From: Perna viridis
Lineage: Eukaryota
Direction of reading: 5' to 3'
DNA: 64,000 nt
NCBI GenBank assembly: GCA_037379345.1
Contig: CM074514.1
Span: forward strand, 25,544,001-25,608,000
In this document: positions 21,557-44,386 of the stretch, piece after piece
How the letters are laid out: every line of letters starts with the position of its first letter
Numbering within the stretch: the first letter of the stretch is position 1
Translations under genes and position numbers: made by a program
The notes under the pieces: model-generated
What the model was told of the DNA's origin: nothing
The model's input: only the letters and a program-made list of their open reading frames with translations
Databases searched by the model: none

Positions 21557-22329
21557 TGTTTCATTTTATGCTACAAAATATCATAAATAGATTACAATGA
21601 CGGTTATATTAAAAGTCTCTAGTTTGACGCTAGTCAAGTAAAAATCTGACATTGTGATACGAATGGCAAGATTTATTTGATGAAGTACAAATAAGAAAAT
21701 TGATTAACTAACTAAGTATAATACAAAATCAGTGATCACATGTCAAACAGATAAAAGTTAGTGAGAGCCATGATTTGTACCATGTTCATGACCATTAACA
21801 AAACATTCCCATATAGCAAACTGTATTTAAATCCATCGAACCTCATTAAAAAAATGTATTTCTGCACGAGCAGCTGACAACATATGTATACTTCTACCCA
21901 TCAAAAATTCACACAACATGTCAACAAAATAGCATCTGTATCCACAATGCACATCACCCACATGGCATGGTTAGCTTGACAGAAATACAAATATCCTTAC
22001 AACAAATTAACGAAATCTGTTTGGTATGATAACTGATTCTTTGGTTTAAATTCATTTAAGTTCTAACTCAAAGTATTCAACTAATTAGCCAACGTTAAAG
22101 TATACTTCGTCGTTCATCCATGTATCTGTCATTTAACTGAATGACAGCAAAATAATGACATTTACCAAGCCGGTTAAGTGGAAAGGTGAAATTTCAATGA
22201 TTAACAAACTTACCAGTGTAGTAAATATTTTCGTTATATTTGATTTTAGTAAGTGACTAAAACTATATACAGTATAACACAACAAAATCTTTACAGAAAA
22301 TATAGAAACACGTATCAAAATACACAAAT

Positions 22330-22445
22330 TCACTGCCACGTACAGATGAAGCACTTCCGGAATTTGCGCATGCTTAGTCCTGCCACGTAACGGGAAGAAG
22401 TGCATGTTGGGATTGTAAACATTGAAAAACGGAAGTAGCACGTTG
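22330..22445. promoter_or_regulatory. Probable bidirectional promoter of SEC24C and the fucosyltransferase
   Basis: CpG-containing patch between divergent genes: TGCCACGT at 22334 and 22381, ETS-type CACTTCCGG at 22352 and CGGAAGT at 22430, NRF1-like TGCGCATGC at 22365. Confidence 0.6.
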
Positions 22446-22505
22446 CTTGTTTACTTTTTTGAACAGTGTCAGGGGTAGTGAGTAACAGAGGGAATGTCAT
22501 AACAA

Positions 22506-25500
22506 ATGTGTAGAATTTTACGAATGTCCCGAATGAGCTTGTGTGTTATTTTCAGCATTGTCGCCTTTACTTTTATTTATTTCATGTTTCCCAATCAAGT
22601 TTTTGCAGGACAGCAACCTACTTTGTTATGGTGGACCAAAGAAATATTTCCACATGTAGGGGACGGAAAGGTATTAATTAATTGTGGTAACGTGCAGTGT
22701 TATTCAACAAAAGACCGAGAAAATCTTCATGCTGAAGATACAAGAGGTATAATGTTCTATGGAACAGGAATAAACCCAACAGATTTACCTTTGCCTAGAT
22801 CTCCTCAGCATGAATGGTGTTTGTTCCACGAGGAATCCCCTTTAAACAATTATATTTTATCTCATGAAACTTTCATAAGACTTTTCAATCATACAGCTAC
22901 TTTCAAACGAGAATCTGACTATCCTATTACAACCCAAGACATATATGCATTAGATTATCTGATTGACAGAAAACCAATTGGTATCAAAGAAAAAAATTTG
23001 AAGCGCAACATTGATGACTTTGCTCCATTATTGTATGCACAGTCTCATGATGATGTGCCCTCATTTCGTGATATGTATGTCAAAGAGCTAATGAAATACA
23101 TAGATGTTGATTCCTATGGTAAGTGCTTGCACAATAAAGATCTTCCAGAAAGTTTAACAAATGCTGCAGAGTCTTTTCAAAAGGATCAATTTCTTGATTT
23201 TATAGCAAATTACAAATTCCATTTATCCTTTGAAAATGCAGTCTGTGATGACTATATGACAGAAAAGCTAATGAGACCACTTCATGTAGGATCAGTGCCA
23301 ATATATTATGGATCACCTAAAGCCAAAGATTGGATGCCAACCAACCAATCTGTTATAATGGTCAGGGATTTTAAAAGTCCAAAAGAACTAGCTGAGTATA
23401 TAAAATATCTTGATAATAATGATGAAGAGTACTTAAAGTTTTTAGAATTTAAAAAACCAAACGGCATTACAAATTCTTTGCTTATAGACACAGTGAATAA
23501 TAGGGATTGGGGATCACATGATCATAAATACTATATTTATAATACTGAAAATAAAAAGGACTATTATCAAGGATTTGAATGTCATGTATGTAATGAGATT
23601 CACAAAAGAATCAAAGCTGAAGACCAGCATACTGCAAATCCATCTACGCCAATGCCTAAACCAAAAATGGCTAACAACACTCACCTTGGATGTCCAAAAC
23701 CATTCTCTCCTTTGGAAGACCACAGATTGTAAGTACTGGCCCTATACCTACTGGTAGTTAAACTGTCATAATGAAAAGTTTGTATTGTAAGACATTTAGC
23801 TAGACATCCTATCAGTTCTTTTTGATTTTACTCAATTAAGTATTATTCCTGGAATGGAAAATTTTTGCTTCACAGTAGGTTTGTTTGTTTTTTGTATTTT
23901 ATCACTCAAACAGGCCTTTAACAAACTCAGTTTGTAGTCATCAAATGGACTGGTAAAACAGTATGCTGTTTATTGGTCATTATGCAGGTCATGTTTTATT
24001 GTACTCCAAGCTTTGCTTGATGTTGCCTTGCAAGCTATTGTCTGACTTGGTGTCATCTTTGCAGTATGGATATTGCCAAAAAATGATAACGAAGCATCTG
24101 TAATGGGACAAATCAAATACGTATAAATCCGAGTGCATGGTCTGAACGTGATGGTAGGACACAAAGACGATCTACACACACAATGTAGCGAATCGAATAA
24201 CATGGACTGTATAATGATTGAAGAGACTTAACATTAAAAAAACAACAGTGCTAGCAATGTGAACTCCCACAACAAAAACAAAAATAAAAAAAACGAGAGT
24301 GACATCAGGTGCTCTAGAAGGGTGAGCAAGTCATACTCCGCCAAAGGCACCCCTCATATTGCAAGTCGGTCAGTATAAATCGGTAGTAGTCTAGCAACAA
24401 GAGCGTGACTCCCCCGACACGAGTCACAAAGGGGTCCAATCAAAAACAACTCACACTTAAGCGAGATCATTCAATTCAACAAGGGTTCATGTTGTAAATA
24501 AAGTAAATGATAATTCCACTTGTGTATGTATACTTTCCCGATCATTTGAACTTGATATATCGCAAAACTGACAGTGTCAAAATTCACTTGACGATATGAA
24601 ATGTATCGCTGTGTAATTTTAATGCCCTCACATGTAGGTTGTGTGATTAGAAAATGTAATTGGGAAATTCAGTAGTGAATCATATGACCTAGCTGCTTTG
24701 ACTTGCTCCAATACAATTTGTCAAAGGAGCTATATCATTGCAGCTAGTAAGAGTCGAATTCAGTAGGTTGTCAATCCGCTAAGATGTGGAATCTTGTCTC
24801 ATCTGTGAGATAGAAAACTTCATATCAGTCAATCAAATTGTGATGACGACTGTAAAACTTCTATGGTGATGACATTAACAAAGGCTGGTTTGCAAGAGAA
24901 GTTTTTATTTGTTAGTATCTGTGCTCTTCATAGAAAGTCCGTGCAGTGATCACAGACTCGGCAGTAAAGGACCAGCTTTGAAAAATATATAACACATGCT
25001 GGAGATGTTGGTATATTGCCATAAAGAAAGGGAAAGTTTACAACTGGGAAGTCAAAATTATCACGTTTGTCATAAAATATCGATTTCAAACGTTCTGCGT
25101 GAAGGAATAGAATTCCAACCTCCCTCGTTGTAGGAGTTGTTTACAGAGAAATACATTACATGCGTGTAAAAAATTCTTACGAGTTTTACTATTTATCAGA
25201 TTAAATTAAGTTTGTACAATTATTTCTAAATTGCAGTCAGAGTGCTATTTTGACAGTCTCGATTCTGGAGTCAAATGGATATTCTTGCCATACTGTCTGT
25301 CGTAAATGTGATTTTTATAGGACCGGAAAACTTGCGGTCATATAATGATATGGCGCTGCGTCGTCCGTAGACACTTGGTTTTCTTGCGATTACTTTAGTT
25401 GGGGTTTGCCAATTGTTATGAAGTTTGATATGATTTTACTAACTTCTAAAGGACGGTTCCTTGTTTATTTGGAGTTTGTGTCCCTTTACCGTTTTAGTAG

Positions 25501-28500
25501 AAGGGGTCAAAAAGAGTAAAATTAAATGTTTCCTTAAAACCCATGTAGAATGTTTATTTTATTCCGATTTTGATAAATCCTTTTTAATTAGCTCACGAAG
25601 GCCATGTGAGCTATTGCCATCACTTGGCGTCCGTCGTCGTCATTAACAATTTTTCAAAATTCTTCTCCTCTGAAACTACTGGACTAATCATAACCAAGCT
25701 TATTATGTTTGTTCCTTGGGGTGTCTTGCATAGAACTGATGTGGGAAAATTTGATCCGTCGAAAAACGTGGCCGCCGTTACTAAAAATAGAACAAAGGGG
25801 TCAGACAGTAGTTTTTCACATATATCTCCAAAACTGTTTTTTTTTTTTTTTACAGTTTTCAGCCAATGTCTAGAAAACTATGATAGGTTTACACTTTCAT
25901 TTGCTGAAATGATCCTTATGATAAGTCCTATCAAAGTTTTCTTAAGTCAAAATTGTTTGACAACTTCTTGTTTAATTTATTGCCCTTGAAAGACAAAATT
26001 CAACCAGGTGATGTGTTCCTTATCTAATTCTGAAAAAAAACCAGATTATCAGCAAATTTGGTGCGTTTTGGACTGTTTTCGAGTTATAAGGTTTAAAGGG
26101 GCCACAACCCAGAAAAATCGACTTTTTAGCTCACTTTGCCCAAAAGGCCATGTGAACTTTTGTCATCACTTCGGGTCCGTCGTCGTTACCGATTTTGCAA
26201 AACTCTTCTCCTCTGAAACTACTGAACTAATCAGAACCAAACTTGGTATGAATTTTCCTTAGGTTATCTTGCATAGAACTGATGTGGGGACTTTTGATCC
26301 GTCGAAAAAAAAAGACCGCAGTTACTAAAAATAGAACACGGGGCCAGACAGAAGTTTTCAGATATACCCCTAAAACCGTTATGATTAGCCAAATTCTGTC
26401 TGAATTAAAGTGTTCAGCTATTTCTCTGGTCAAGTTTTCGTTTTATTCCGTAAAGCCATGTTGGAGTCATTGCCCTTTTCGACGATTTTTTCCTGTTTTC
26501 AATGTTATTTCTTTCAAAAATATTCTCCTCTGATATTACTCGACCAGTTGGAACCAAATTTGGTATGAATGTTCCATAGAGTATTCTTTATATAACTGAT
26601 ATGGAAAATTTTGATCCATGTCGAAAAACATGGCCGTCTTTACTAAAAATAGAACAAAGAGATCAGAAGTTTTTCGCATATATCTACTAAACCATTATTT
26701 TTACCAAATTCTGACTTGGGTTAAAGTGCATATTCAGCATTATGAGATCTATCTCTGGTCAAAATTTCGTTTTATTTTATTAAGGCATGTTGGAGTCATT
26801 GTCCTTTTTCGACGTTTTTTCCCTATTTTCAATGTTTTTTTTTTGTTTTTTTTTCAAAAAATCTTGTCCTATGAAACTACCTGACCAATTAGAACTTAAC
26901 TTGGTATGACTATTTTTATAGGATCTTCTTCATAGATCTGATGTAAGGATTTTTTTTATCCGTCGAGAGAGTAATCAAAGGTACCAAGGTTATAGCGGTA
27001 ATCCAAAGAATAATCCAGGGACAAGGACCAGACATGGAAAACAGACATACACAACAAAGAACATAAAGTAACTAAAATCATACATACAAAGTAACAAAAG
27101 CAAATGAGCAACTCGGGCTCCACTCAAAACTGGGAGCATAGACCAGGTGCACCGGTAGGGTAAGCGTCCTCTGCTTTTCTAGAAACACCCACCGATTTGC
27201 TCATAAAAAGTCAAGTCCGGGGTAGACGAAAGAGGAAAGGAAAATCATGACGCGCTGAACAGATCAGTTTTCATGGCGCAGATGGATACACCGTAGCGAT
27301 CCACGAGTTCATGCTGACGACCATAAAACTTCTATAGTGATGACTTCATTCTTGTAGCAACATAATCCTGTTCCAGAAGCCTATTTGTTAGAATTCTAGC
27401 AAAAAAGTCTGCGTAGTTTCGGCAAGCTCTGGCTTAACGTATGAGCTGTGATATGAACACTCCATACGCAGGTGCTGACGGGATGTTGCCACAGATGAAA
27501 GGAAAGTTGACAATTCTGAATGGAAAGTCATTACGTTTGTCGTAAAGTTTGGTCAATAGTTTTCCTTTACCATCGGCTTCTAAATGTAGGTCAAGATATG
27601 AGGTTCACCTCACAGTGTCTGTAGTATCCTTTATCTCAAGTTCTTTGGGGTAGATGCGATATATCAAATCCCCGAATTGGGATTGTTTAAAGATAATATG
27701 TCATCTATATAGCGGAAACTGAGATTAAAAGATCTAGCTAAACGATATTTTTTCTTTCGAATCAGATCAGCCATAAAGTCAGCCTCATAAGAATGGAGGA
27801 ATAGGTCAGCAAGTAGAGGAGCACAATTTGTTCCCATTGGAATGTCGACCGTTTGTTAAAAATTCGGCCACCACACTGGACAAATATATTGTCGATTAAA
27901 AATTCCAGCATTTTGTAAACATCATCTTCTGTATATTTGGAAGATGATTTGGAATTATTTTTCACAAAGTATGAAGAATCTCTACCAAGAACTATATATT
28001 TGTATCTAGGTGTACCATCTTTTAAAAAAAAAACAACGACGTATAATGAACATAGGGGTCAGTCAGAAGTTTTTCTTATATATCATAAAACCGTTTAGCC
28101 AAATTCTTTGAAATGCTGAAATATGCTTTATATTATAAGGTCTACAAAAGTGCATTGGATCAAAGTTGTCGGACGACTCCTTGTTACCGTTATTGTTCTT
28201 GAAATGTAATTTTTTTTTACAGTTTTCAGCTAATATCTTGAAAACTTTGATGGATATAGAAATATAACTTTCAGTTAGTGAAATGATCCTCATGGTAACG
28301 CTTACAAAAGTCTGCCTGGGATCAAAGTTGCCAGAGGACTCCTGATTATCCCTTGAAAGGCGAAAAATGTTTTAGCAGTTTTCAGCCAATATCCTGAAAA
28401 GTGTGATGTATAGAAAGAACCTTTCAGTTGTTGAAATGATTCTTATGAATTTAAAATGTCGGACAACTTTTTGTTAGAGTTATTGCCCTTGAAAGGCATA

Positions 28501-29058: not shown

Positions 29059-30061
29059 AATTGGTGAATAGATGGTTCAAAATTAGTTTAATTTTTTTTT
29101 TTTCGTATGACAACCCTAAACAAAGTCTTAATTATGACAAGTATATAAATTGCGTGAACACACTTCAGCATTAAGTATGCGTGGAATGATGGCTTGCTGA
29201 AGAGAGATAAACTAACACATTCCGCTTCGTATTAAGAGAAGAAAAAAAAATAACCAATGACAATCAAAAAGGGACAAGGCTGGATTATGAAGGATTTTTG
29301 GCTTTTTTTAGTTTGTTTATGCTATTTTAAGATGACTGTATGTCCTCATGTTGTTTTGTTACATTGTAAATTTTGAATCATTGATATGAAATCCTTCTAA
29401 CTTTTTAATGATTGTCTCAATGTCTGTATACTTTTTGATGAAAATTTGATTTTTGTATCTAAGTTCTTGAAACTTCGGTGGATTTTTTATTGTGCACAAC
29501 GTATATTGAGAAGACGCCTTATTGTATGTTTTGGAAGTCGTTTAAACTTTACAGTTGATAGTTATGATGATCTCAGTGTCTGCATACTTTTTGTTCAAGA
29601 TATACGGCTGCTGTTTAGTTTACTCCAATGCGACGGCAGGTGTATCAAGTGCTAATGACACACATGATTAGTTACTACTATTAAAATGAGACATAATGCA
29701 CCTTTAATGTGATAAAGTAAGGTCTGAAATTATTGAAGAGAACCACTTATTTATTTTCGGTTGGTCTTAAATGCATCAGTTTTTTTTCTCTCAGACATTT
29801 CAAGTACATAAATGAGCTTAACGGGTTTAATCAAATTTCTTTATTTTTTCAATCAAACAATGTATGTTATTTGCAGTTATGTATTGTTTTTATTTGTGGA
29901 TATGTATTTCAAAAATGCACGATCATTTACTTGTATATACAAATGTGATTTATACTTATCACTATTATCAACCCTAATTTTATAAAAATATACAATTCTG
30001 TTTTCTTGCACATTTTTTGTGTCCTGTATAACTCTGGCATTTCATTTAACGATGAAGACTC

Positions 30062-30205
30062 AGTAGTATCAAAAGGCCGATTCTGCCGCACTTGCCATTT
30101 TCAAGGGGAAATCCTGCATAGGGCCCCCAACCCCGACGGCCAAATGCAAACGGACGGCATTCCTATTGAGCATAGGGTAAATACGAGAATTATGTCTTTC
30201 GTACA
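30062..30205 (+). repeat. Polinton left terminal inverted repeat
   Basis: Reverse complement of 43083-43226 apart from 5 substitutions. Confidence 0.95.
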
Positions 30206-33200
30206 AAGCATAAGTCAGATCGCCCCAGAGGATAGTGGGGATGTGGATAAGGACACCTTAAAGGGAAGGATGTCACAGATTGATACAAATAAAAATATGA
30301 CATCCGAAAGAAATATGATGGATTTCTTTCGGGAGAATGAAAAAGATTTGGAGGATAGCACCCCAACTCCGCAAAGGCAGCAGCAGTGCTGCAATGCCCC
30401 CAACCTGACGCAGGTGGATGAACACACCACGCAGTGTCAAAATTGTGGTGCAGAGGTGATGAAGCTGCGATTTGAGCATCAACCAGGGGAGCAGAAGACC
30501 ACCTGCGGCGTCGAACTCAAGAGGAAGAAGGGGTAGTTCTGCAAGAGCAAGCCCGGGAAGGATGGTCTCTGCTGGAGACATAGCAGGCAACCACGTCAGC
30601 AGGAGGAGGAGGTTATCCCAGTCGAGGGTAAGATGGTGGTGAAAGAGACCATGAAGACACTCCGTCAAATAGCTAAGGACGAGGGTCTGAGGGGGGCCAG
30701 TAGGAAGAACAAGGAGGCCTTGGTGAAGCTCATCGAGGAAAAAACCACCCGTAGATTTGAACGCCAGAAAGTCTTCAGCAAGAAGCAGCTCAAAGCGCTA
30801 GCAAAGAATCGTGGTCTCACCAAGTACTCCCAGCTCAAGAGAGACGATCTGCTCCAGCTGGTTGAAGAGAACATCAAAAACGCCCCAGCTGAGGATGAGA
30901 TGAAGATCTCGTCGATAGACGGCAAGCTCTGAACTGTGTATTTGGGTCTCACTAACCACTTCTAACGTTTCCATTACTTTACATGTTAAAAAAGTAATTT
31001 TCAAAGTCTGTGAATTCCCAGGACAAATGACATCTTAAAGTTCATACCATTGTGAAGCTTGGAAAGTAAGGCTTCCAAAATCATTATGCTAATGGTACGA
31101 TGATAGTAGAAATTCTTCACAAAATTTACTTGAATAAATAATACTGAAAATCCACATTTTTACCTGTTCTGCTAACTGACAGCATGGAGGCAAATTACTC
31201 ACACATGTAAACAATATTCATACACTTTTGTAGTTAATTACATATATGATTTTAAAGTACACATTCTTAGCTTTATTTTGACTACTTTTAATCATAATAC
31301 ACACAAATAATGCACTTACAATGCATAAGTCTAGGTTCAGTGTGTTTTTGGTACTACATTGGGGGATGGCCATTTGACCTGGAAGTGGTTAGTGAGACCT
31401 TGGCACGGTCGTCATCGAACCCGCGAAGCAGCACGACGTGGCCACTTTTCTGAAGGTAAGTCGGAGCACCGTCACCACAACCATCGCAGATGGGCTTGTC
31501 CAAAAGCAGGGATTGAAGGTGATCTTGGTGCTTCTAGTGGAGATGGTGAAGACCAACCCCGCGACTGGGGAAAATACCTACGTCACCCCCTACTTTCGAT
31601 CAACCCTCAATACCCTCACACAGTCATCCGACCTCGAATTGGAAATCGACTTCATGATGGGGAAGATCAGGGTAAGTATGGCAAAGTACATGCGCGATGG
31701 GAGTGGATGGACGTTCGGACGCATCGAGAGGCTAGAAATCTACCTCAACCAATTCAAGCCGCTCAAGTGGGGTTCCTTCATTCCGACTCCATCAGCACTC
31801 GCGAAAAAGAAGGCGATCGTCAACGTGAAAAATGAAGATGATCGCTGCTTCCAGTGGGCGGTGCTGGCAGCCCTACATCATGAAGAAGTCAATCAGAAAT
31901 CAGCCAACCTCAGTTTGTATCTCAGTACAAACCATGGACAGGGGAGCTCAACTTCGACGGCATCGATTTCCCAGTCTCTCACCGGGCGATCGACAAATTT
32001 GAGAGGCAGAATCCCACCATCAACGTCAACGTCTATGGGTTTAATGGGGTGAAGAAGGGTGAGGATGGTGAATAGGATCTCCAGGTTTACCCACTCAAGA
32101 TATCCAAGAATACGGGTCCCACCCACGTAGATCTTCTCTCCCTGACTAGCGAAGATAAGCAGCATTACTGCTGGATCAAGAGCCTCTCACGACTCTTGAG
32201 CTCCAAAATCTCAGAGCATGGTCACAAGCTCTTCTGCCGCAGATGCCTTTCCCACTTTTCCAGGCAGGACATCTTGGACGAGCACATGGAGTATTGCACC
32301 CAGAAAGAGGCGGTCAGGATCGAGATGCCGGAAGAAGGAGCCACCATAACCTTCCATAACCTCAAGAAGATGATGAGAGTCCCCTTCGCGATATACGCGG
32401 ATTTCGAGTGCTTCACAGAGAAGCTCAACACCTGTCAGCCGGATCCATCACACTCCTACACGAAGGCCTATCAACTGCAGCGACCCTCGGGTTTCTGCTA
32501 TTACGTGAAATACGCTCACGGCGACTACAAAGATCCAGTCGTCTACTGCGGGGAGGATGCGGCCAAGAAATTTGTGCAATGCGTAGAGGAAGAAGTGTGC
32601 CCCATCTCCAAACTATACAAGGAGAATAAGCCCGTGGAGATGACCGACGACGATAAGGCGAGCTTCGAAGCAAGCACGCACTGCCACATCTGTGGCAATG
32701 CATTGAGAGGGGATAAGGTCCGGGATCACGACCATCTCACCGGGAAATATCGCGGCGCAGCGCACAACCAGTGCAATCTGGATTTCCAGCTTCCGAAGCA
32801 CGTCCCCATCTTCTTCCACAATTTGAGCGTATACGATGCTCATATCTTCGTCAAGGAGCTTGGCCACACCGAGGGTAAGATCAACTGCATCCCTAATACC
32901 GACGAGAAGTATATCAGCTTCTCCAAGCAGGTGGACGATCTGGAGATGAGCTTCGTCGATTCGTGCAGGTTTATGCTCAACAGCCTGGATACCTTAGCTA
33001 AGAATCTCACCCCGACCAATTCGCGACCGTGAAGGCGAGATTCGGCGATCGCCACGAGCTAATGATTCGGAAGGGGGTATTTCCCTACGATTATATGGAT
33101 GGACCGACCAAGCTGGAAGAGACTCAGCTCCCAACCAAAGAAGCCTTCTTCAGTACGCTCTCCGGAGAGCATATCAGTGATGAGGATTACGCACACGCTC

Positions 33201-34747
33201 AGAGGGTCTGGGAGAACTTCGGGTGCAAAAACATACGCGATTATCACGGCCTCTATCTCGAGACTGACGTGCTGCTGCTGACTGGCATCTTTGAGGATTT
33301 CTGGGATATCTGCTTGACCCACTACGGACTCGATCCCGCCCACTACTTCACATCCCCCGGGCTATCCTACGACGCCGCCCTCAAAACCACGGAGGTGAGA
33401 TTGGAGCTGCTCTCCGATCCGGACATGTTGATGATGTTCGAGAGGGCAACCAGAGGGGGTGTCGCCATGATCTCCCACCGCTACGGCAAGGCCAACAACC
33501 CCTACATGACCACGTACGACGCCTCCCAGCCCACCAAGTATCTGACCTACCTCGACGCAAACAATTTCTACGGGTGGGCGATGGCGCAGTCCCTTCCAAT
33601 GGGGGACTTTGAGTGGATGGAGCCGGAGGAGATCGAGAAGATCCTGGAATATCCCGACGACCACGAGTACGGCGCCATTGTGGAATGCGATCTGGAATAT
33701 CCTCAAGATCTTCACGACGCCCACAAAGACTACCCTCTCGCGCCCGAGAACGTGGAGGTCGGCAAAGTGCACAAGCTCGTGCCTCACCTGGACAAGCGTG
33801 AGAAATATACCCTTCACTATCGAAATCTCAAGATGTATCTGGAGAGGGGGATGAAGCTCACCAAAGTCCATCGCATCATCGGATTCAGCCAATCTCCATG
33901 GCTCAAGAAATACATCGATCTGAATACCACTCTTCGCGCCCGGGCCAAGACCGACTTCAAGCTCATGAATAATTCGGTCATCGGCAAGACCATAGAGAAT
34001 ATCCGGAAGCGCGTCGACGTCAGGCTGGTCACCACCGAGAAGCAGGCCCTGAAGCTAGTGGTCAAGCCCAACTTCGATCGTCGCGTCGTCTTCACCGAGA
34101 ATCTAGCAGCCGTTCATATGAAGAAGACCAAGCTGAAGTTTGATAAGCCCGTCTACCTGGGAGCGTGCATATTGGACATCTCGAAGCTCCTTATGTACGA
34201 CTTCCACTACGGATTCGTGAAGGAGATGTACGGTGATCGTGCCCGACTACTTTTCACCGACACCGATAGCGTGGCCTATGAGATCCAGACCGCCGACTTC
34301 TACAAGGATATCGCACCGCACATGCAGGAAAAATTCGATACGTCCCACTACCCGGCCGAGTATCCCTCCAACATCCCCACCGGCGTGAATAAGAAGGTCA
34401 TCGGGATGTTCAAGGACGAATGTGGTGGTAAGATCATGACCGAATTCGTGGGGCTCTGGGCGAAGCTATACGCCTTCAAGATGGATGACGGTCAGACCAC
34501 CAAGAAGGCGAAGGGAGTCACAAAGAGCGTCATCAAGCGTAGCATCGCCTTCGAGGATTACAAGCGATGCCTTGAGACTCAGCAGGAGATCCACCGACCG
34601 ATAAGCATCCTTCGCAGCCATCTCCATCAGATCTACGGCGAGGAGATCAACAAGATCGCTCTCTCAGCCAAGGACAATAAGCGCCACATCCTTCCCGACG
34701 GCATCAGCTTCCTCGCCCACGGACACTATCGAATCACTCACGGGTGA
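30192..34747 (+). pseudogene. Protein-primed family B DNA polymerase with long N-terminal extension, disrupted
   Basis: Exonuclease motifs IYADFE and FHNL; EndoVII-like HCHICG...RDHDHLTGKYRGAAHNQCNL; RKGVFPYDY; polymerase motifs YLDANNFYGWAM, KLMNNSVIG, FTDTDS. The N-terminal part carries Zn fingers and two Rho-N/HEH-like repeats; that it belongs to the same gene is inferred. Lesions: TAG at 30534, TGA at 30930, MITE at 30945-31399, frameshifts near 31900 and 33020. Confidence 0.93.
30945..31399. mobile_element. AT-rich MITE inserted in the Polinton polymerase gene
   Basis: Perfect 18-bp TIR GGTCTCACTAACCACTTC / GAAGTGGTTAGTGAGACC; TTG on both sides (30942-30944, 31400-31402) as a likely 3-bp TSD. 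Confidence 0.88.
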
Positions 34748-34749
34748 GG

Positions 34750-34917
34750 ATGCCCATCCCATACGAGATGGTCGACTATCTGCGGCCGGAAATTCGATAT
34801 AATACCGATGAGCTCCAGCGGAGCGGCGACGTGGTCTGCGGACACTTTAGCCTGCACGTCCTGAAGATCTTATCGGAAGGTCGGACGCTTGAGGAGATCG
34901 TCTCGGACTATAGATAA
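34750..34917 (+). pseudogene. C-terminal half of an adenain-like maturation cysteine protease
   Basis: Below the ORF-track cutoff. Translates MPIPYEMVDYLRPEIRYNTDELQRSGDVVCGHFSLHVLKILSEG...DYR*, with the Q-x6-CG catalytic-Cys motif. The upstream His (HW) and YFDS motifs are absent. Confidence 0.75.
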
Positions 34918-35346
34918 ATGGATAAGTTTGGATCTCAATCGAGAAAGCGCATGCCCGTCTGGCGGATGCTTCAGGGTCTCAATATGAACGATAATCGGAT
35001 CACTAGCCTCGGTTTGCCCCGATACAGCTCAGACGCCGTGACGAAGCGATGGGTCAGCCAACAATTGGAAGACAGCATGAAAGACATCGATGAGCTAGAT
35101 TCGGAGATTAAGCAGATGCAAAAGGAGTATGACGCATCGATCAAAGACCTGACCAAAAAGCTGATGGCCAAAGTCGATAAGTCAGACAGCGGCAAGGTGA
35201 ATTCGGATCTAGACATGCAAAAATATCACCTGCTAAATCTCCCACTCCCCCGGACTGATAACGAGCCCATCACAAAAGCACTTTACGACGGCTTGAAAGA
35301 GGATCTAGACGCATTAAGGCTCTTCGTCGAACTGAAGCATGCGTAA
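34918..35346 (+). CDS. Polinton protein with two trimeric-fibre neck-like motifs and a coiled coil
   Basis: LNMNDNRITSLGLPRYSSDAVTKRWV and LDMQKYHLLNLPLPRTDNEPITKALYD flank a heptad-rich segment; preceded by TATAGATAAATG. Confidence 0.7.
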   Translation: MDKFGSQSRKRMPVWRMLQGLNMNDNRITSLGLPRYSSDAVTKRWVSQQLEDSMKDIDELDSEIKQMQKEYDASIKDLTKKLMAKVDKSDSGKVNSDLDMQKYHLLNLPLPRTDNEPITKALYDGLKEDLDALRLFVELKHA

Positions 35347-35353
35347 ATCAAGA

Positions 35354-35385
35354 CTTTCTGGTCTCCTTTGATCGAGACCGGAAAG
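35354..35385. terminator. Hairpin between the convergent fibre-like and integrase genes
   Basis: CTTTCTGGTCTC-(8 nt)-GAGACCGGAAAG, 12-bp stem with one G.T pair, in the 50-bp gap between the two stop codons. Terminator role is inferred. Confidence 0.5.
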
Positions 35386-35396
35386 CCTGCTGGGGA

Positions 35397-36323
35397 TCAT
35401 TGCAAGTCGGACTCCTTGATCCAGGAATTGAATTCTTTGGGGTAGCCTCTCCACTTGACGCAGATTTCCTTCGTCCCTCCTCGGGTACGCCGGCGCAAGA
35501 CTTTCTCGATGCGATATATATCCTGGTCGGTGTGCTGGAGCTAGGGCTCATAAAAGGATCCCTTGATTTCCTCACCCTCATAGTCTTTGAGGCGATAGGT
35601 GGGCGGCTGCATCGCTAGGGTCTGGGCGATGGTGAGACTTCCTCCGTCCAGCGCGGAGTATATCCCTTCTCGAAGATGCCCTTCTTCCTGGTGATCTGGA
35701 CCTTATCGCCGACGTTGAATCGCTGAGGCTGCATGGGTGGGAGGTCTCCGTAGAGATTCCAGAAGAACTTTGACTCGTGCTCTTTCTGGCTGGCGGCGGT
35801 AGGTGTCATCTTGATGGATTGATGCTTTGTGGGATTATACTGGCGGGCGAGATCGTCCAGGACGGGAAGGTAGGCCCGCGTGTAATTGGCCGAGAAGTAT
35901 TTGAACATCTTTTCCTTCATGGTACGATTGCAGCGCTTCAACACGCTCGATTTTTCCTCGTTCTCGGTGGAGTAGAGATCGACGTCGTGCTTCCAGAGCA
36001 GATCCTTCCTCATGATTGTAAAATTCTGTGCCCTTATCGGTCCATAGCTTCTCGGGCGTGCTATCCTTGAAGACGGTCCGGAAGGCATCTCGTATCGTGG
36101 CGCCTTTCTTATCCTTGAGCGGTACCAACCAGCCGTACTTAGAAAAGACGTCGATGATGCTCAGGAGATACTAGAAACCTCGGTTATCGCGGGTGAAGGC
36201 GCTCATATCCACGAGATCGGCAGCCCAGGTCTCATCCACCCCACCTACCACCACACGACGCTTCTGAAATTTGCGTCGGACTGGCTTATGCAGCTCTTCG
36301 GCTAGTTCGTCCGACCATTGTAC
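35397..36323 (-). pseudogene. Retroviral-type (rve) integrase with C-terminal chromodomain, disrupted
   Basis: WSDELAEELHKPVRRKFQKRR, ETWAADLVDM, IDVFSKYGW, LWTDKGTEFYN, EEKSSVLKRCNRT (expected catalytic E is K), FEKGYTPRWTEE, chromodomain VKWRGYPKEFNSWI. In-frame TAG at 36171-36173 and frameshifts. Confidence 0.93.
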
Positions 36324-36815
36324 TTTTTTTCTGCACTCCCAGCCCAAATCGTGCTTTGGTGCCGATGATGGACTTGACGATGCTGCGGTCCATGCGCTCC
36401 CGGACGGTGGGATTGGGAATGGCGTCCAGTGAGGCTAGCATAGCCTTATCGCAGATGGAATTGCGAGCGGCAGTATCCTTATGCTTGGCGTAGCAGAGAT
36501 CGTGCCGATAGGGGGCCTGATCCACCCGATTAATGGGCTTCGACCAAACCTTGGGGGTGCCATCTGCATTTAAACGCTTATGGAGCTGGGTGCCCGGCCC
36601 TGTAAAATTATGCCCCGGCAGATGCACCTCCACGGGCAGATGGTTGACCATCTTATTTACGAGCCCCGCACCCTCGCTCCCTCGGAGGAACTGAGACTTC
36701 CTAGCCCCGCATACGGCGCATAGCCCACCCTTCGCCGCCTCCCATTGCTGGTGGTGGTCTCATAGCGACTTTCTGTCTCGGTCGGCCGCTTGCACTTCAA
36801 GCAATACATTCCCAT
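36286..36815 (-). pseudogene. Zn-ribbon plus parvovirus-VP1u-like phospholipase A2 domain (PLA2X-type) protein
   Basis: ATG at 36815: MGMYCLKCKRPTET...; after one frameshift near 36720, CAVCGARKSQFL...HLPGHNFTGPGT (Ca-loop-like)...PINRVDQAPYRHDLCY (catalytic HD). Confidence 0.85.
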
Positions 36816-36828
36816 TTTATATAGATAA

Positions 36829-37589
36829 ATGGACGTTGAAGACCTTACCTACGATGAACCCACCGCGAGTCGTCAGCATAACCACTTTCTCCTCCCGCAG
36901 CGATCCATCCGAAGTCTGATCATCGGGAAGTCGGACTGTGGCAAGACGACGCTGCTGAATAACCTCCTCCTTGGCAATGGATGGCTCGACAACGATCGCC
37001 TCAACGTCGTCGGAAAATCCACCAGCCCATCTATCATCTGCTGTGGCAGGCGCTGGGAAAGGGGTTTTCGAAAGACGATATCCGCGACTTTCTCTCCATT
37101 AAGGATCGCTACCCCCACTCTTTGATTGACGTGGTGCAGATAATGAAGCCGTCGACTAAGCGTAGCGGTATAGAACTTTTCTTCTTTGAGCAGGCGAGCG
37201 ATGTGCCGGATCCTCGAGAGCTCGATCCCACCCGCAAGAACCTCATGGTCTTCGACGACTTGATGCTGAGCAAGCAGAGCAAGTGCGAAGACTACTACGT
37301 TCGCGGTCGTCATAATAACGTGGACTGCTTCTACCTCTGCCAAAATTACTTGAAGCTCCCGCGGCAATCGATCCGGGAGAATGCCAACTTCATCTGCCTC
37401 TTCGAGCAGGATGCTAAGAATCGCGATCATATCTGCCGGGACCATTGCGGTGATCTCACACTGGCTCAATTCGATGCCCTATGCGATCACTGCTGGTCCA
37501 AGCCTCACGGATTCCTGACCATCGATCTCACGAGCCCCAAGACGGCGGGAAAATATCGATGCAATTTAGATGAATTCTATCGAGTCTAA
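36829..37589 (+). pseudogene. A32/FtsK-like DNA packaging ATPase, one frameshift near 37020
   Basis: Walker A IIGKSDCGKTT, Walker B LMVFDD, RGRHNNV, RENANF. Confidence 0.92.
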
Positions 37590-37597
37590 GATAAAGA

Positions 37598-38212
37598 ATG
37601 GATCACTTGAAGGAATTTTTCCTGGAGAATCAACGGGACTTGGATTGGGAAAATGTCCCAGAGCCCCCACGACCATCCCCTGAATGCAAGCACCAGTGGG
37701 AGCGTGTGCTTATTTACGGCGATATCCCAGGGTATGGCTGCAGTGAATGCGGAGCTGAAAGGTACGGTCGCCGCTTCGATAATCAGGATTTCGAAGGAAG
37801 GACCTATAATTTCCAGCCCTCCCGCAAACTTGAGCAACCGCCCGAACCCCAGTGCTGCATCAAGACCGTCCGTGGCCATCAGTGCACGTATCCCTCTATA
37901 AGAGGTAATGATAAGTGCAAGAGGCATTTGAATATATGCTATAGGTGCTGTGTTAAGATTTCCCGCCGCAAAGCCTGGTATCGTAACCACGAGGGGACTA
38001 TACACGGACCCAAATTCATCCCCCTCTGGCCGTCGGCCGTTAAAGTCCGAATATCGGGGGAGTACGTAAAAAGATTCCGCAAACTATTCTGTTCACCCGA
38101 GTGCTGCATGGGTAGCTTCCTCAACGCTGGCAGGCAATATTTAGACGATAAGTGGCGATGGGTTGAACGCTATGGGGCGATGGGAGGCGATGGGACGATG
38201 GTGAAGCTATAA
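37598..38212 (+). CDS. Intact Cys-rich multi-zinc-finger protein (Zn ribbon, CCCH finger, CxxC...FCSxxC domain)
   Basis: CKH...CSECG; C-IKTVRGHQC...CKRH; CYRC...FCSPEC. 204-aa ORF packed between the ATPase and the next gene. Confidence 0.75.
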   Translation: MDHLKEFFLENQRDLDWENVPEPPRPSPECKHQWERVLIYGDIPGYGCSECGAERYGRRFDNQDFEGRTYNFQPSRKLEQPPEPQCCIKTVRGHQCTYPSIRGNDKCKRHLNICYRCCVKISRRKAWYRNHEGTIHGPKFIPLWPSAVKVRISGEYVKRFRKLFCSPECCMGSFLNAGRQYLDDKWRWVERYGAMGGDGTMVKL

Positions 38213-38216
38213 ATAA

Positions 38217-39074
38217 ATGACGTTTATCAAGATCACCGATCCCAAGCAGCGTGAGGCGCTTGCTAGGGACTTGCAGGAGACCAAGCGTAGCATCCAGGCT
38301 AGCGATATGCAGCGTCGCCTAGATAAGATCTGATTCAGCCGCGATCTCTCCAAGATATTCAAGCCCGTGGTCGAGACGCAAAAGGAGACCGCCTCCCAGA
38401 TCACCAAAAAGATTGATGATATCCCACTCGCTCTACCCGCCCCGGTACCTGCCCTTTCCCCTCCTACCTCTACCGCTGAGGACGACTACGACCCACTAGC
38501 TATCGAGCAAGAATTGAAAACCAACCTAGGTCCGCGAGCGACGCACTATCTTCAGCTCAGTATGACTCCACAGGCCGACCATACTTTCGGATTGCGAGTA
38601 GAAGACGGCTCCATCATGATCGGGAGTCTGCCTGTCACCTTCGATGGAGACGATATCTACATCGATGCCGAGCGCTATAAGGGTACCCCCGGCCTGTGGG
38701 AGCTTACGGTCCTGAAGCATCCCAAAGATATCGACGAGGACTTGCATAACTATGGTGATATTCTACAAGCATCGGGTGCCATGTATCAAGGAAACTCCGT
38801 CCTATCGCGGACCTCCAAGGCCAGCAAAAGCCGGAAATGGAAGGAGATCGTCTCGTACCTCTATAAGCAAGATAAGCATGGGAGTGGGGTATCGACCGTC
38901 TTCCTTCCCACATGCTTCGACCAATTGCTGGATCGTCTCGATCTTTGCGCTGTCGCCTACCAGGCTGGAAATAATGGGTTGCGCAACAAAATCGTGGCGA
39001 TCCTCGACGTCATGAGGAAGTCCGGTCATATCAGCAGGGATGAGTACGAGAAGCTGCATCGGAAGCTCCTCTAA
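38217..39074 (+). pseudogene. Conserved Polinton protein of unknown function; premature TGA at 38331
   Basis: Starts at TATAAATAAATG (MTFIKITDPKQR). Motifs KIFKPV, DHTFGL, YKGTPGLWEL, GSG..FLP...LLDRL...AGNNG resemble a widespread Polinton family from recall. Confidence 0.75.
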
Positions 39075-39085
39075 ATAAATTTACA

Positions 39086-39406
39086 ATGCCTTTAGTAGTG
39101 AATCACGGTTATCGCCGGAGATATGCCGTCAGCGGACGAGGCCTTTTCGATACCATCGCCAATCTTGCCAAGACGTTGGGTAGCAAGGCATTGAGTGCCG
39201 CTTCCAATGCAGCTCTGAAAGGTGTGGAGAAAGGTGCGATCAAGGCCGTTGACCACGTCGTCCGTCGAGTTACTCGCAAGAAAAATGCTCCCCAAGCACC
39301 ATCCTCCAAGGTCAAGAGGACCTCACAGCAGCAGGTCCGTCTCAATAATCTCATCTCGAGTGGGGGCATCGCCACCATCCATGACTTCGTCCAGCGCTAT
39401 AGATGA
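39086..39406 (+). CDS. Small basic core/virion protein
   Basis: Arg/Lys-rich 106 aa with SGRGLF and SGG motifs, immediately upstream of the MCP. Confidence 0.7.
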   Translation: MPLVVNHGYRRRYAVSGRGLFDTIANLAKTLGSKALSAASNAALKGVEKGAIKAVDHVVRRVTRKKNAPQAPSSKVKRTSQQQVRLNNLISSGGIATIHDFVQRYR

Positions 39407-39410
39407 ATAT

Positions 39411-40670
39411 ATGATGGCTGATATGCTCACTATCACCGAAGGATTGACTTTCGACGAAAGTCTCCAGGAAAATCAGGTTCACGAATACGAACCTCAAGCC
39501 GGGGCGCAGCTGAATAATGCCAGTGCAGAGATACACATCAATATCGAGACTCAAGATCTCTTCCTCCACCCCGCCGAAAGCTATCTCTTGATCGGAGGCC
39601 GACTTCAGAAGAACGATGGCACCGCGTATGCCGACGGTGATCGCTCGTCCATAACGGCGCCATGTATCTATTTCGTAGCATCAGCTACCGACTTTCCGGG
39701 CAGCAGATCGAGCACCTCAACGATCCCGGCGTTGCCACCACCATGCTGGGTATGCTGACGTACCCCGACGACTTCTCCAAATCGCAAGGCCTCAACCAGC
39801 TATGGTTCAAAGACTCCACGGCCGATGCCGAGGCAGATAACGTTGGATTCACAGCACGCCACAGATATATCATCACCAAGCCAGTCAATAAGGGATCCTT
39901 TTCTTTCGCCATCCCGCTCAAGCACGTCTTTGGCTTTGCCGAGGACTACGATAAGATCGTCTACGGACTCAAGCACGAGCTTTCCCTGGTGCGAGGTTCG
40001 GATGCCAATGCGATCCTCCGAGCCGCCAAAGTAGTCTTGAGCAAGATTTCCTGGTTCGTCCCCCACGTCATCCCCTCCGACGAAAAGAAGCTGCGGCTCT
40101 ATAAGACCATCCAGAGCAAGACCAAGATCGATTGCGGATTTTGCATGAGGCAGTGCGACTCCATCGCCGTGTCCCAGACCTCGCAATTTCATTGGCGTCT
40201 AGCCGCTAAAAGCGGACGAGAAAAACCGCGATGGATCGTCGTCGCCTTCCAGACGGATAGGAGCAATGATCAGACGCACAATCCGCCGTCTTTGACCACT
40301 GCCGATTGCGAAATATCCACGTGACCCTCAATGCGGAGCGCTATCCCGCCGTGGATTTCAATGCCGGCTTCACCCATTGCAGGGTGGCCAGGGTCTATAA
40401 GGAGGACGCCGAATTCCGCAAGTTCTACACCATGAAAGTCTGCTGAGCAATGGTGGTATCAATCCCTCCGGCTTCATCGATCTCTATCCCCTATTCGTCA
40501 TCGACGTCAGCCATCAGTCCGAGCGGTTGAAAGAGTCGACGGTGGATATCCAGATCCGAGCCGATTTCGAGGGGAACGTCCCGGCTAATACCCAAGCCTT
40601 CGCCCTGGTCATCTCCGATCGAATCCTCCAATTCGAATCCGACGGTCAGAAGATGAGCGTCGTCTTCTGA
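39411..40670 (+). pseudogene. Double-jelly-roll major capsid protein, frameshifted
   Basis: DESLQENQVHEYEP, FLHPAESYLL, IPLKHVFGFAEDYDKIVYGLKHELSL, EKPRWIVVAFQT, LNAERYP, PLFVIDVSHQ. Frameshifts near 39650, 40290 and 40430. Confidence 0.92.
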
Positions 40671-40684
40671 GGAGGGATAGATAA

Positions 40685-41454
40685 ATGGACGCTTCACTTT
40701 TGCGGAAAATCGCCACCAATACCGAACCCAAGCATGGGTTCTCCTTCATCGTCTCTGGGAACGATAGCCAGATCTTGACCCGCTTCAATCCACCCCTCCA
40801 ATTGCGCGAGGAGAAATCTTACGAGATGACCCTAGTGAATCTGAAGACCTACTACTCCATCCCCAATATTCATGCAGGTAATAATTCCTTCCGCTACTCT
40901 CCCGATGGCGGGGCTAACTGGTTTTCCGTCGAGCTGAGCACCGGCTCTTACTGCATCGACGATATCAACGATGAGATCCAGCGGCAACTGCGGCTGCATA
41001 GGCACAAGGCTAAGGTCCTTCTCGATGCCAATCGTGCGACGCTGAGAGCAACCCTCACCCTCGCCAGAAATTATCGAGTGGATTTCGACGTGCCCAATAG
41101 CATCAGTACGGTGCTTGGATTCGAGCGCCGGACGTATACCTACGACCGAAGCACCAACGGCTACGCGGAGGGTGAGAATATCGTCAATATCATCAGCATC
41201 AATAGCATCCTGGTGAATAGCGATATCATCCACGGAAGCTACGTCAACGGCACGCAGCAGTCCACCATCTATAGCTTCTTTCCCGCTGTCGATCCGGGTA
41301 TGAAGATCATCCAGACCCCCAAGAATCTCGTCTACTTACCCTGACCCTGAGGACCATCGACCGCATGCAGACGTATCTGACCGATCAAGACGGCCGCCCC
41401 ATCGATCTGCGAGGAGAGAATCTCACCATCCGCTTCCATCTGCGCGAGGTATAA
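40685..41454 (+). pseudogene. Minor capsid (penton) protein, frameshift near 41341
   Basis: FNPPLQL, YYSIPNI, GSY.IDDIN, LGF, NSILVNSDIIHGSYVNG, IYSFFP, NLVYLP; shifted tail LTDQDGRPIDLRGENLTIRFHL. Confidence 0.9.
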
Positions 41455-41458
41455 ATAA

Positions 41459-42036
41459 ATGGATTATCAAGAGTACGGTCTCAACTTGACGAAAGGTCAG
41501 GCGGAGAAGATCCAGCGTGCGGCAAAGAAGGGTTGCCCCGTGAGCGTCCGATTGCTGCATGCAAACCTATCCGGTGAGCATAAGATGCTCCTCACTCACC
41601 GCCAGATCCAGCGCATCACCAAGCTCTTGCAGAGTGGGAAGGGTGGTATGGTCTTGGAGATGAGCCCGAAGCAGGTGAGGCATAATGTGCGGAAAGAAGG
41701 TGGATTCCTCCCCATGCTAGCAGGTCTTGCCTCTGCTGCGCTACCCATGCTGGCCAAAACCGTGCTACCTGCTTTGGGCGTGGGTGCATTGAGCGGTTTG
41801 GGTAGTGCAGCCATCCAGAAGGCTGTGGGATCCGGATTATATCTCAAGAAGGGTGGGAAAATATGCTGCGTGAAACCTCGTGGTCGTGGTCTGTATTTGA
41901 GTCCAGGCATTTTGCCCAATACATACGGTGATGGGCTATACTTGAAGAGCGGACGTCAGATCTACGATGGAAGTGGACTGATCCTTGGTCCCAATAGCCC
42001 TTCAAAAGCATCCCCATCTTGGGCATGCTCCTCTAG
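41459..42036 (+). CDS. Basic core protein with an adenovirus pX-like GGFL motif and GxGLYL repeats; tail frameshifted
   Basis: LLTHRQIQRI, KEGGFLPMLAGLA, GSGLYL/GRGLYL/GDGLYL/GSGLIL. The likely original end PNSPFKSIPILGMLL* (TAG 42034-42036) is out of frame by one base. Confidence 0.75.
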
Positions 42037-42046
42037 ATATAGATAA

Positions 42047-42568
42047 ATGGACGACGTAGACTCGGGGAAGCAATCCTACGGAGAAGCTAGAATCGAGTCG
42101 ATCGAGAAAGAGCTTGAATCCGAAAAGCATAAGTATGCTCGACTGTCGAGGAACTATAAACGAGTGGAAAAAGCGGTGTCTTTTGCTCTGGGTACCTGTG
42201 CAGTACTCAACGTAGTTTGCACCACTGGCACACTCAGCACCGCCGCAACGGGAATAGGCGCCGTGGCATGCATTCCGTTGAGCTCACTAACCGTCGTGAA
42301 TTCAATCACGATGGCGGGGTTGGCGGTGCTAGCCAAGCGCATCCGCCAAAAGCGTAAAAAGCATAAAGATACCGTGCGCATCGTCAGATCCTACCAATCC
42401 AAGATCGAAGATGCAGTGAGCAAAGGCCTGGAGGATGATGATATCGATGAATCTGAATTTGCAGGGGTTGTAAAATGTCTTAGCTTCTACTACGACGAAA
42501 AGCAGCAGCTGCGAAAACCTTCCACGGCCACCACTTTTAGTGAAGACCTTACTGCGCATGCGCCATAG
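42047..42568 (+). CDS. Polinton membrane protein with a central hydrophobic hairpin
   Basis: Coiled coil, long hydrophobic Ala/Gly/Thr segment, then KKH and VSKGLEDDDIDESEF; preceded by TATAGATAAATG. Confidence 0.75.
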   Translation: MDDVDSGKQSYGEARIESIEKELESEKHKYARLSRNYKRVEKAVSFALGTCAVLNVVCTTGTLSTAATGIGAVACIPLSSLTVVNSITMAGLAVLAKRIRQKRKKHKDTVRIVRSYQSKIEDAVSKGLEDDDIDESEFAGVVKCLSFYYDEKQQLRKPSTATTFSEDLTAHAP

Positions 42569-42667
42569 GGAGGATTCTTCCAACGCTCGCCTCGCTCGGC
42601 TACGCCTCGCTCCCCACGCTTATTCCAGAATCCTCCAGATCAAAGTTCCAAGTGACCAAAAAAAAAA

Positions 42668-42703
42668 AAATTTCCCAATCCAGTAATTTGGATTGGGAAA
42701 TTT
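42668..42703. terminator. Perfect 15-bp-stem hairpin between the convergent right-end genes
   Basis: AAATTTCCCAATCCA-gtaatt-TGGATTGGGAAATTT. Terminator role is inferred. Confidence 0.55.
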
Positions 42704-42739
42704 CGAACCCCTTACCCATAGCCTTCGATTATTTTTTTA

Positions 42740-43096
42740 TTACTTCCTCACCAGGTCATAGGAGAGGTACTGCTGCTGAGATTTCTTGCTCACCTTGAAT
42801 CCAGTGCTCTGAACGAAAGCTCCTTGCAAAGGACCCTTCTCTTTGTTGAGCGTGGGGCAGGCCTATATCCTGGTGGTCTCTCTGTCCCGATCCTTCAGGG
42901 TGAGGATACTACTTTTGCCGAATTTTCCATCCACTTCTACCACCTCCAAGATCTTATAGATCACACCGGTTGGAAAGTCCTTCCATTTGAGTGCTTCCTG
43001 ATTCTGATCCTGCAGCTTCTCCTGGAAGGCGTCTTCGCTGATGAAGCCATCCCCATCTGTGGGAATGTCAACGAATCCATTGTGTACGAAAGTCAT
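42740..43096 (-). pseudogene. Small beta-rich putative OB-fold/ssDNA-binding protein, 118 codons, internal TAG
   Basis: MTFVH...KWKDFPTGVIYKILEVVEVDGKFGKSSILTL...RI*ACPTL...FVQSTGFKVSKKSQQQYLSYDLVRK*. The frame continues through TAG at 42863-42865 (probably TGG); AATAAA overlaps the final stop. Confidence 0.65.
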
Positions 43097-43226
43097 AATT
43101 CTCGTATTTACCCTATGCTCAATAGGAATGCCGTCCGTTTGCATTTGGCCGTCGGGGTTGGGGGTTCTATGCAGGATTTTCCCTTGAAAATGGTAAGTGC
43201 GGCAGAATCGGCCTTTTGATACTACT
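43083..43226 (-). repeat. Polinton right terminal inverted repeat
   Basis: Ends ...GATACTACT followed by the TSD AGACTC. Confidence 0.95.
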
Positions 43227-44386
43227 AGACTCCGTCTTGCATGATATTTTATGACCCATATGTCTGGGATTTCATGAAATGTATTATTTTGTATCTAGCT
43301 ATCCTCTTAAATTCGATCTTGATCTATGCATATAGTGTATCAAAAACTTATATTGTGTCCACACTTGCCTCAAGTATACATAGTTCAACAGGCTGCGTCG
43401 TATCATGCAGGAATCGGCGAAGCTTTTTATTTCAAATATACACTGATGTATATTGATGTAAACTTCCTGTAAAAAATGACTTTCGTCATGAATTAGGGGT
43501 TTCAGTATTGGTATACGATCTTCCAAATTATGCTTCTTGTTGGAACATTTTTTTTTGGGGGGGGGTGGGATTACGGCCTGTTGGGGTAATGTTTTCAATC
43601 ACCCTTAGTAAATCATCTGATACTGAATTTTTTTAAAATTAAATAGTAAAATAATAATGTCTTGTCACTATTTTATGTTAGATTGCATTTAAAGTGAAAA
43701 CATTCATACATTTGTCCAAAAAATATAGACCATTTCTGTTTTTCAAAAAGTGCAATATGTTATCAGTTACACAACTGCATAAGGGGGAGATAATCACGTA
43801 CATTATTATTATTGTAATTTAGATTTGTTTACTAACAGTAAGTTTTGATATATTAGGTTCTTTAGAAATATTATTATCATTTTACATTAATATCAAATAT
43901 ACAGTTTACAAAATTTGTGAAAAGAGCAAAACAATTTTAAAAAGTAAAATTATATATTTTTGTGTTCCAACGTTGAAGAAACATTTTGCAACTGACTAGT
44001 TTACATATTTTTTTTCTTTATTACCCGATTCTTTGATATTGAAGAATAGTGTGTATATTCGTGGATCATAGTAGCAAATAAATTATATACCTATGAAGTG
44101 CAACTCAACTTGTCACTTAAAAGGGCAATGTAACACAATAATTTGCTTGCGTATGTCTTGATCTACTTTCTTGTTTTACCTTTTTGAAATGACATGTAAG
44201 TGTGTTTTTTTTCATGACGAATGATATGAAGACTGTCATAACGTTTTTGTTACTCAAGAGGTTTTGACGTTGATTCAATGTTGGTTCGCCGTAACAAAAC
44301 TCTCAAGTACAAATAACATTTACAGACAAGTTCTTAAAGAGAAACGTGAAATACATTGGCTATTCTGAATATAGTAGGGCCAACGT

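Follow-up and report, generated by a model that had tools for sequence, protein, structure and literature searches.

Introduction

The closest described relatives of the locus studied here are Polintons and Alpha adintoviruses (PMC8502044), with which it shares PolB, an ATPase, a DJR capsid, an adenain-like protease, a parvovirus-type phospholipase A2 (PLA2), an rve-chromodomain integrase, terminal inverted repeats (TIRs) and a 6-bp target duplication. In the accessible text of that work, PLA2X and the rve-chromodomain integrase of Alpha adintoviruses are treated as separate genes, whereas at our locus and in its relatives the two overlap or are fused and the integrase lacks a start of its own. 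Mavirus virions hold an rve integrase, and the mavirus maturation protease cuts at GG|X and GX|G (PMC6048507); the available text of this source lists the integrase, MV02, as its own gene product and contains neither a PLA2 fusion nor a frameshift. Slippery -1 sites have been predicted in the adintovirus penton and hexon-adenain (PMC11071296), which like ours are hypothesised, but they concern other genes and are predictions only, and PLA2 is mentioned 0 times in the accessible part of that paper. DUF5679 has been noted in coral polintoviruses, in the available portion of the source without a link to a PLA2-integrase gene (PMC11131425).

Two groups of recoding systems also bear comparison, as far as the accessible parts of the two sources describe them. 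The -1 frameshift of retroviral gag-pol (PMC7618472) resembles our case in having an upstream structural protein, an integrase in the -1 frame and a minor fusion, here predicted to be packaged and cut by a protease. Unlike gag-pol, our case involves a DNA virus, a Zn ribbon-PLA2 partner, a heptamer that often ends in G or A and some lineages that are in frame, and our stem-loop models gave at most a weak hairpin rather than a pseudoknot or a strong stem. Potyvirus GAAAAAA, Ebola GP and ribosome sliding on A-runs (PMC5009743) are similar in that an A homopolymer acts without a clear RNA stimulator and an added A gives the longer product; potyvirus and Ebola slippage, however, uses viral RNA polymerases, whereas for a Polinton the agent would have to be the ribosome or the RNA polymerase II of the host. 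Our literature searches turned up no description of PLA2 and integrase joined by fusion or frameshift, although figures, supplements, Repbase entries and subscription papers may hold one; there was none in the accessible text of PMC3671162, PMC5803895, PMC11161782, PMC11296320, PMC13215967 and 10.64898/2026.06.19.733378. Polintons are known, with PLA2X and the chromodomain integrase as separate genes; the link of these two by fusion or frameshift is new as far as we found.

A decayed Polinton with an integrase that lacks its own start

The window analysed here is a 64,000-nt stretch of Perna viridis DNA (host genome 723-Mb, 30% GC); all coordinates are positions in this window, and the gene of interest lies on its minus strand. 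Within flanks of 30% GC we found a 13.2-kb insert of 53% GC, bounded by 144-nt TIRs that are 97% complementary and begin AGTAGT, and by a 6-bp target duplication (30056-30061 and 43227-43232). Pfam matches include protein-primed PolB (PF03175, E 4.8e-06 on 32076-33029, extending into 33002-34747), the DJR capsid (PF21738, E 1.6e-29) and the A32 packaging ATPase (PF04665, E 1.8e-04). PolB, the rve integrase with its chromodomain, the capsid, ATPase and protease, and the TIRs with the 6-bp duplication place the insert among the Polintons/Mavericks (Polintoviricetes). The following features are used below:

30062-43226, no strand assigned: decayed Polinton/Maverick (adintovirus-type) provirus, 13.2 kb, recognised by GC contrast, TIRs, target duplication and Pfam matches
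34750-34917, plus strand: 3' remnant of the adenain-like maturation protease, in siblings a complete ORF of ~137 aa with H-D-Q-C motifs
36709-36815, minus strand: start codon (ATG at 36815) and N-terminal DUF5679-type Zn ribbon with two CxxC (PF18930 on relatives)
36661-36675, minus strand: EGAGL, a GX|G motif between Zn ribbon and PLA2 and a candidate protease site (GG/GxG on this side of the PLA2 module in 71/73 full-length fused relatives)
36427-36630, minus strand: parvovirus-type PLA2 domain (PF08398, E 1.2e-08; GPGT loop at 36600-36589, HD at 36504-36499)
36435-36437, minus strand: TAG closing the integrase frame upstream in the window copy
36337-36351, minus strand: RFGLG, a conserved GX|G at the end of the PLA2 module and a candidate protease site (GxG in 63/71 metagenomic loci, GG/GxG in 60/73 full-length fused proteins)
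36324-36330, minus strand: A-run junction, A7, offset +1 in the window copy, the proposed slip site of the family
36277-36319, minus strand: weak candidate stem-loop a few bases past the A-run, within conserved coding sequence
36286-36288, minus strand: stop of the PLA2 frame in the window copy
35397-36323, minus strand: rve integrase with C-terminal chromodomain, broken

The initial annotation had described an integrase frame that is closed upstream, reaches the first catalytic Asp without an ATG and overlaps the PLA2 frame at seven A's with an offset of +1, and the sequence agrees on each point: the first ATG of the frame is the Met of ADLVDM (36206-36204), the PLA2 frame runs from stop to stop over 36286-36759, and ELHKP of the integrase frame lies at 36296-36282. 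This arrangement explains why gene callers report the gene as two, a PLA2 protein of 165 aa and an integrase without its first catalytic Asp. The A7 is the sole A/T run of at least 7 between 30062 and 42600, and siblings as well as distant relatives have an A-run where the same domains meet, so its position is not due to chance. The upstream part had been taken to be a continuous Zn ribbon-PLA2 protein, which is true of relatives but not of the window copy, where a separate frameshift near 36727 splits the two domains. The integrase itself carries stops at 36171-36173 and 35541-35543 and frameshifts near 36015 and 35630, has lost its catalytic Glu near 35938 and matches PF00665 only weakly; a sibling integrase exceeds the cut-off for both PF00665 and PF00385, and its structure match is the retroviral (foamy-virus) integrase fold. 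As had been anticipated, the frame mechanism is undecidable from this decayed Polinton alone; its relatives can decide it.

Natural fusions of PLA2 and integrase

The predicted fusion of Zn ribbon, PLA2, integrase and chromodomain occurs in nature. One sibling copy has an open frame of 478 codons that covers part of the Zn ribbon, PLA2, rve and the chromodomain, its own start being broken, and single-frame DUF5679-PLA2-rve-chromo proteins of 460-480 aa exist elsewhere. A search with the PLA2-integrase part of this sibling gave 3951 matches; among the best 120, 112 combine PLA2 and integrase motifs in one protein, mostly 460-475 aa long and with DUF5679, PF08398 and PF00665, although such a query sees in-frame copies only and is biased accordingly. 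In a predicted model of the fusion the domains are separate, and the linker that joins them at the junction is disordered (residues 163-200, pLDDT below 50; pTM 0.32). We are confident that the PLA2-integrase fusion is real.

Such proteins are also expected under an alternative to frameshifting, in which active elements read Zn ribbon, PLA2 and integrase constitutively in one frame, the protease separates the parts, and the Lys-coding run is merely a mutation hotspot that breaks inserted copies. For run-free lineages this is almost surely correct, and it may apply to the family of the window's own genome; as the general account we consider it unlikely, for reasons given below, but it survives better than the other alternatives.

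Two further kinds of joined gene were seen. Eight otherwise intact run-free in-frame fusions (L075, L077, L080, L096, L098, L100, L112 and L128) lack a Zn ribbon within their ORF, which hints that they form a clade of their own. In two natural proteins (P0129 and P0135), PLA2 is joined straight to the chromodomain end and the integrase core is deleted.

Reading frame depends on the length of the A-run

To avoid a fused query, we used the integrase only and took the best 80 of 492 metagenomic loci, 71 of which had PLA2 directly upstream; the 9 dropped loci had too little upstream DNA (8) or no PLA2 match (1), and one of them reads in frame. The frame depends on the length of the run. With at most 5 A's, 21/23 loci were in frame, as constitutive in-frame reading predicts, whereas with at least 6 A's only 7/48 were in frame, 19/48 were at +1 and 22/48 at -1, the commonest class (Fisher p 4e-10; the loci are not independent). 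After grouping at 80% DNA identity, the majority was at -1 in 10 of the 14 run-bearing families, at +1 in 4 and in frame in none, and when both halves were otherwise intact, 10/15 run-bearing loci were at -1, 4/15 at +1 and 1/15 in frame. Both counts argue against a constitutive in-frame polyprotein in run-bearing lineages. Damaged or cut run-bearing loci stood at -1 in 12/33 cases, at +1 in 15/33 and in frame in 6/33, and this shift toward +1 is what contraction of decaying -1 junctions would produce. Viral contigs yielded two relevant genomes, too few to count: one at -1 with its neighbouring ORFs open and one in frame with a break just downstream.

Sibling copies in the same genome

Counting run length and offset, as the initial annotation had suggested, thus revealed a -1 excess in run-bearing relatives, but the family in the window's own genome gave a mixed picture. 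We identified 43 distinct copies, 41 of them with a junction: 16 in frame, 15 at -1 and 10 at +1. The four younger subfamilies (29 copies) comprise 13 at -1, 9 in frame and 7 at +1; the oldest (12 copies, with shorter runs) comprises 2 at -1, 7 in frame and 3 at +1. Frame is unclustered on the sibling tree, with 19 changes against 18.0 after shuffling (39/41 rows, junction columns left out), and equally so when the junction columns are retained; siblings only 1.7-3% apart differ in frame. Other homopolymers of the same copies are steeply unstable, deviating from the commonest length in 1.5% of cases for A/T5, 6% for G/C5 and 3/15 for G/C6, with a bias to deletion (22 shorter against 6 longer). 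All of this can be read in favour of constitutive in-frame reading: in frame is the largest class of the genome as well as of its oldest subfamily, close siblings differ, and unstable homopolymers could shift a run that was once in frame to -1 and +1. The scrambled state of the own genome therefore weakens the case for a programmed slip, as does the fact that -1 leads only in the four younger subfamilies.

Against this stands the condition of the copies themselves. Not one of the 16 in-frame copies has an uninterrupted frame from the Zn ribbon through the chromodomain, and two out-of-frame copies have both halves open under a strict motif test. Furthermore, the junction Lys codons are all AAA (28/28 and 30/30 own copies), while eight other ORFs of the Polinton use AAA and AAG at 46:121; in such an AAG-preferring element, selection should interrupt a harmful run. 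We take the all-AAA codons as a mild sign that the run is kept at the nucleotide level. Between subfamilies, dN/dS is 0.08-0.13 for PLA2 and 0.17-0.25 for the integrase. Both halves are under purifying selection, and hence the integrase is expressed in active lineages.

Synonymous divergence between subfamilies also differs along the gene, with dS up to 1.1 in the PLA2 half and up to 0.3 in the integrase half, suggesting recombination near the junction. In one public run (X1), the summed contig depth of the family reaches tens of thousands; depth is not a copy number, and this value may reflect very many copies or amplified element DNA.

A -1 peak in a high-copy lineage

When the upstream part served as query, the matches included DUF5679-PLA2 proteins that stand alone, are 165-174 aa long and fall into clusters as large as 2359 and 1462 members. 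At their C-terminal ends they read like the fused-protein junction translated in the -1 frame (for example NKKK-LHY-stop instead of NKKK-ASLLAEELH). We classified 300 members of 20 large clusters (15 stand-alone and 5 fused) from protein tails, not from DNA or reads: 172 were at -1, 45 in frame and 14 at +1, 7 were unclassified and 62 had no junction, so that 172/238 readable junctions were at -1. Weighting by cluster size gives about 6030:500:250 for -1, in frame and +1 (~89% at -1), although the in-frame share may be understated, as the lists hold the best 120 matches per search and fused proteins are scattered over many small clusters. The peak persists in subfamilies whose linkers differ, and 32 contigs encode one identical -1 protein. 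Constitutive in-frame reading could hardly yield so sharp a -1 peak across subfamilies of different run lengths.

Other possible sources of the integrase and of the -1 excess

The overlap could also be mere gene packing, with the integrase made separately through splicing into the junction, a non-AUG start or an occasional upstream ATG. An upstream ATG in the integrase frame is indeed present in 5/23 metagenomic -1 loci, and some 310-aa integrase-only calls begin just before the run. However, there is no ATG in this frame before the first catalytic Asp in 18/23 metagenomic and 14/14 own -1 junctions examined, the first one following that residue, so that the lack of an independent start noted in the window copy extends to most of its relatives. 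Moreover, the frame opens only at the A-run in 7/23 metagenomic -1 loci, which is a poor context for a splice acceptor, and, as the in-frame fusions show, a joined protein is viable. Separate production is therefore improbable.

Homopolymer errors are typical of long-read assemblies, but an artefactual -1 excess from runs called one base short is very improbable, given that longer and shorter junction variants are also present in Logan contigs of other public runs and hence are not merely assembly error (frames were not counted from contig depth at the junction, since short contigs with gaps are clipped), that the -1 majority recurs across many independent metagenomes, and that 17 runs of at least 7 A's lie inside the integrases of 14/71 loci, genes that were retrieved as best matches and are thus biased to intact ones.

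The proposed slip site and its surroundings

The initial annotation regarded A_AAA_AAG as a canonical slippery site. According to the accessible parts of two sources, this holds for bacteria, where it is the optimum, but not for eukaryotes, where the last base of the heptamer is rarely G (PMC7618472, PMC5009743) and Z is defined as any base but G (PMC7618472). The own -1 copies carry A_AAA_AAG (Z = G), and many relatives show A_AAA_AAA, A_AAA_AAC or G_GGA_AAC in the right frame, the latter two in short-run families; long runs contain a heptamer automatically. A classical eukaryotic -1 signal also includes a stimulatory stem-loop or pseudoknot placed 5-9 nt downstream. Just downstream of the run, a weak hairpin forms in 29/30 sibling copies (mean z -1.09; z -0.59 in the window), with no covariation in the own family (term -0.2; two-sided change in 1/10 pairs). 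There was no stable downstream fold at the 23 metagenomic -1 loci (z -1.3 to +1.7) and no drop in synonymous variation after the run in the own copies. The only raw RNA run provided a single read on the stretch, which does not span the A-run. Low-level slippage that is largely free of a stimulator is thus our best reading of the mechanism from sequence comparison. As to the agent, we consider a ribosomal slip somewhat more likely than the addition of an A by RNA polymerase II. A conserved alternative-frame TAG at Leu-Ala codons was also considered as evidence and rejected, as it is common in run-free lineages too.

A gag-pol-like model

We propose that, in run-bearing lineages, the integrase is made through a programmed slip at the A-run, with a probability of about 0.6 for this family on the basis of the comparisons above; for the high-copy lineage the probability would be higher. 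The programmed frameshifting raised by the initial annotation would thus apply to run-bearing lineages but not universally, since run-free lineages are in frame and the window's own family is mixed. The working arrangement would be a -1 overlap, in which an integrase without its own start overlaps the end of the Zn ribbon-PLA2 gene at the run. Most translation would give a short Zn ribbon-PLA2 particle protein, which would attack membranes, and a low-level slip would give a Zn ribbon-PLA2-integrase-chromodomain polyprotein. This polyprotein might be packaged via its PLA2 part, by analogy with the integrase in mavirus virions, and the element's protease, again judging from mavirus, would likely cut at the flanking GX|G motifs, so that the integrase arrives together with the incoming DNA. 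Once the element has inserted, the run would mutate fast, leaving old copies such as that of the window scattered over all three frames, while run-free lineages would reach the same protein via plain in-frame fusion.

In its broadest form, to which we assign even chances, a wide clade of animal Polintons convergently evolved the gag-pol logic: the Zn ribbon-PLA2 entry protein is the Gag equivalent, a programmed -1 slip on a bare A-run appends the integrase, and the appended integrase enters the particle of the DNA virus and is released by the maturation protease; individual lineages move back and forth between recoding and in-frame fusion, and in most inserted copies the run ends up inactivating the integrase. 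If true, this would offer an explanation of how the integrase of Polintons gets into the particle and is kept at a low level, and would extend gag-pol-type recoding to a family of eukaryotic DNA viruses that insert into animal genomes. Thousands of natural copies form a ready comparative set, and the claim is directly testable, including the bare A-run as a eukaryotic recoding signal.

Other observations on the element and its surroundings

Three ORFs of the Polinton without a Pfam match (41459-42046, 39044-39406 and 38334-39074, all plus strand) bear repeated GxG/GG motifs (GSGL, GRGL, GDGL and GSGV), as would be expected of protease-processed core proteins, and viral contig L170 has an ORF that resembles them. 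The ATPase (plus strand) and Zn ribbon-PLA2 (minus strand) genes start head to head at 36816-36830, with a 13-nt AT-rich spacer (TTTTATATAGATAAA) between them, and other genes of the Polinton are also preceded by similar AT-rich spacers. Long open frames cross both TIRs (29949-30536 and 42863-43294). Outside the Polinton, several ORFs of 100-400 aa lie in a stretch of mildly raised GC (17390-25989), possibly another repeat.
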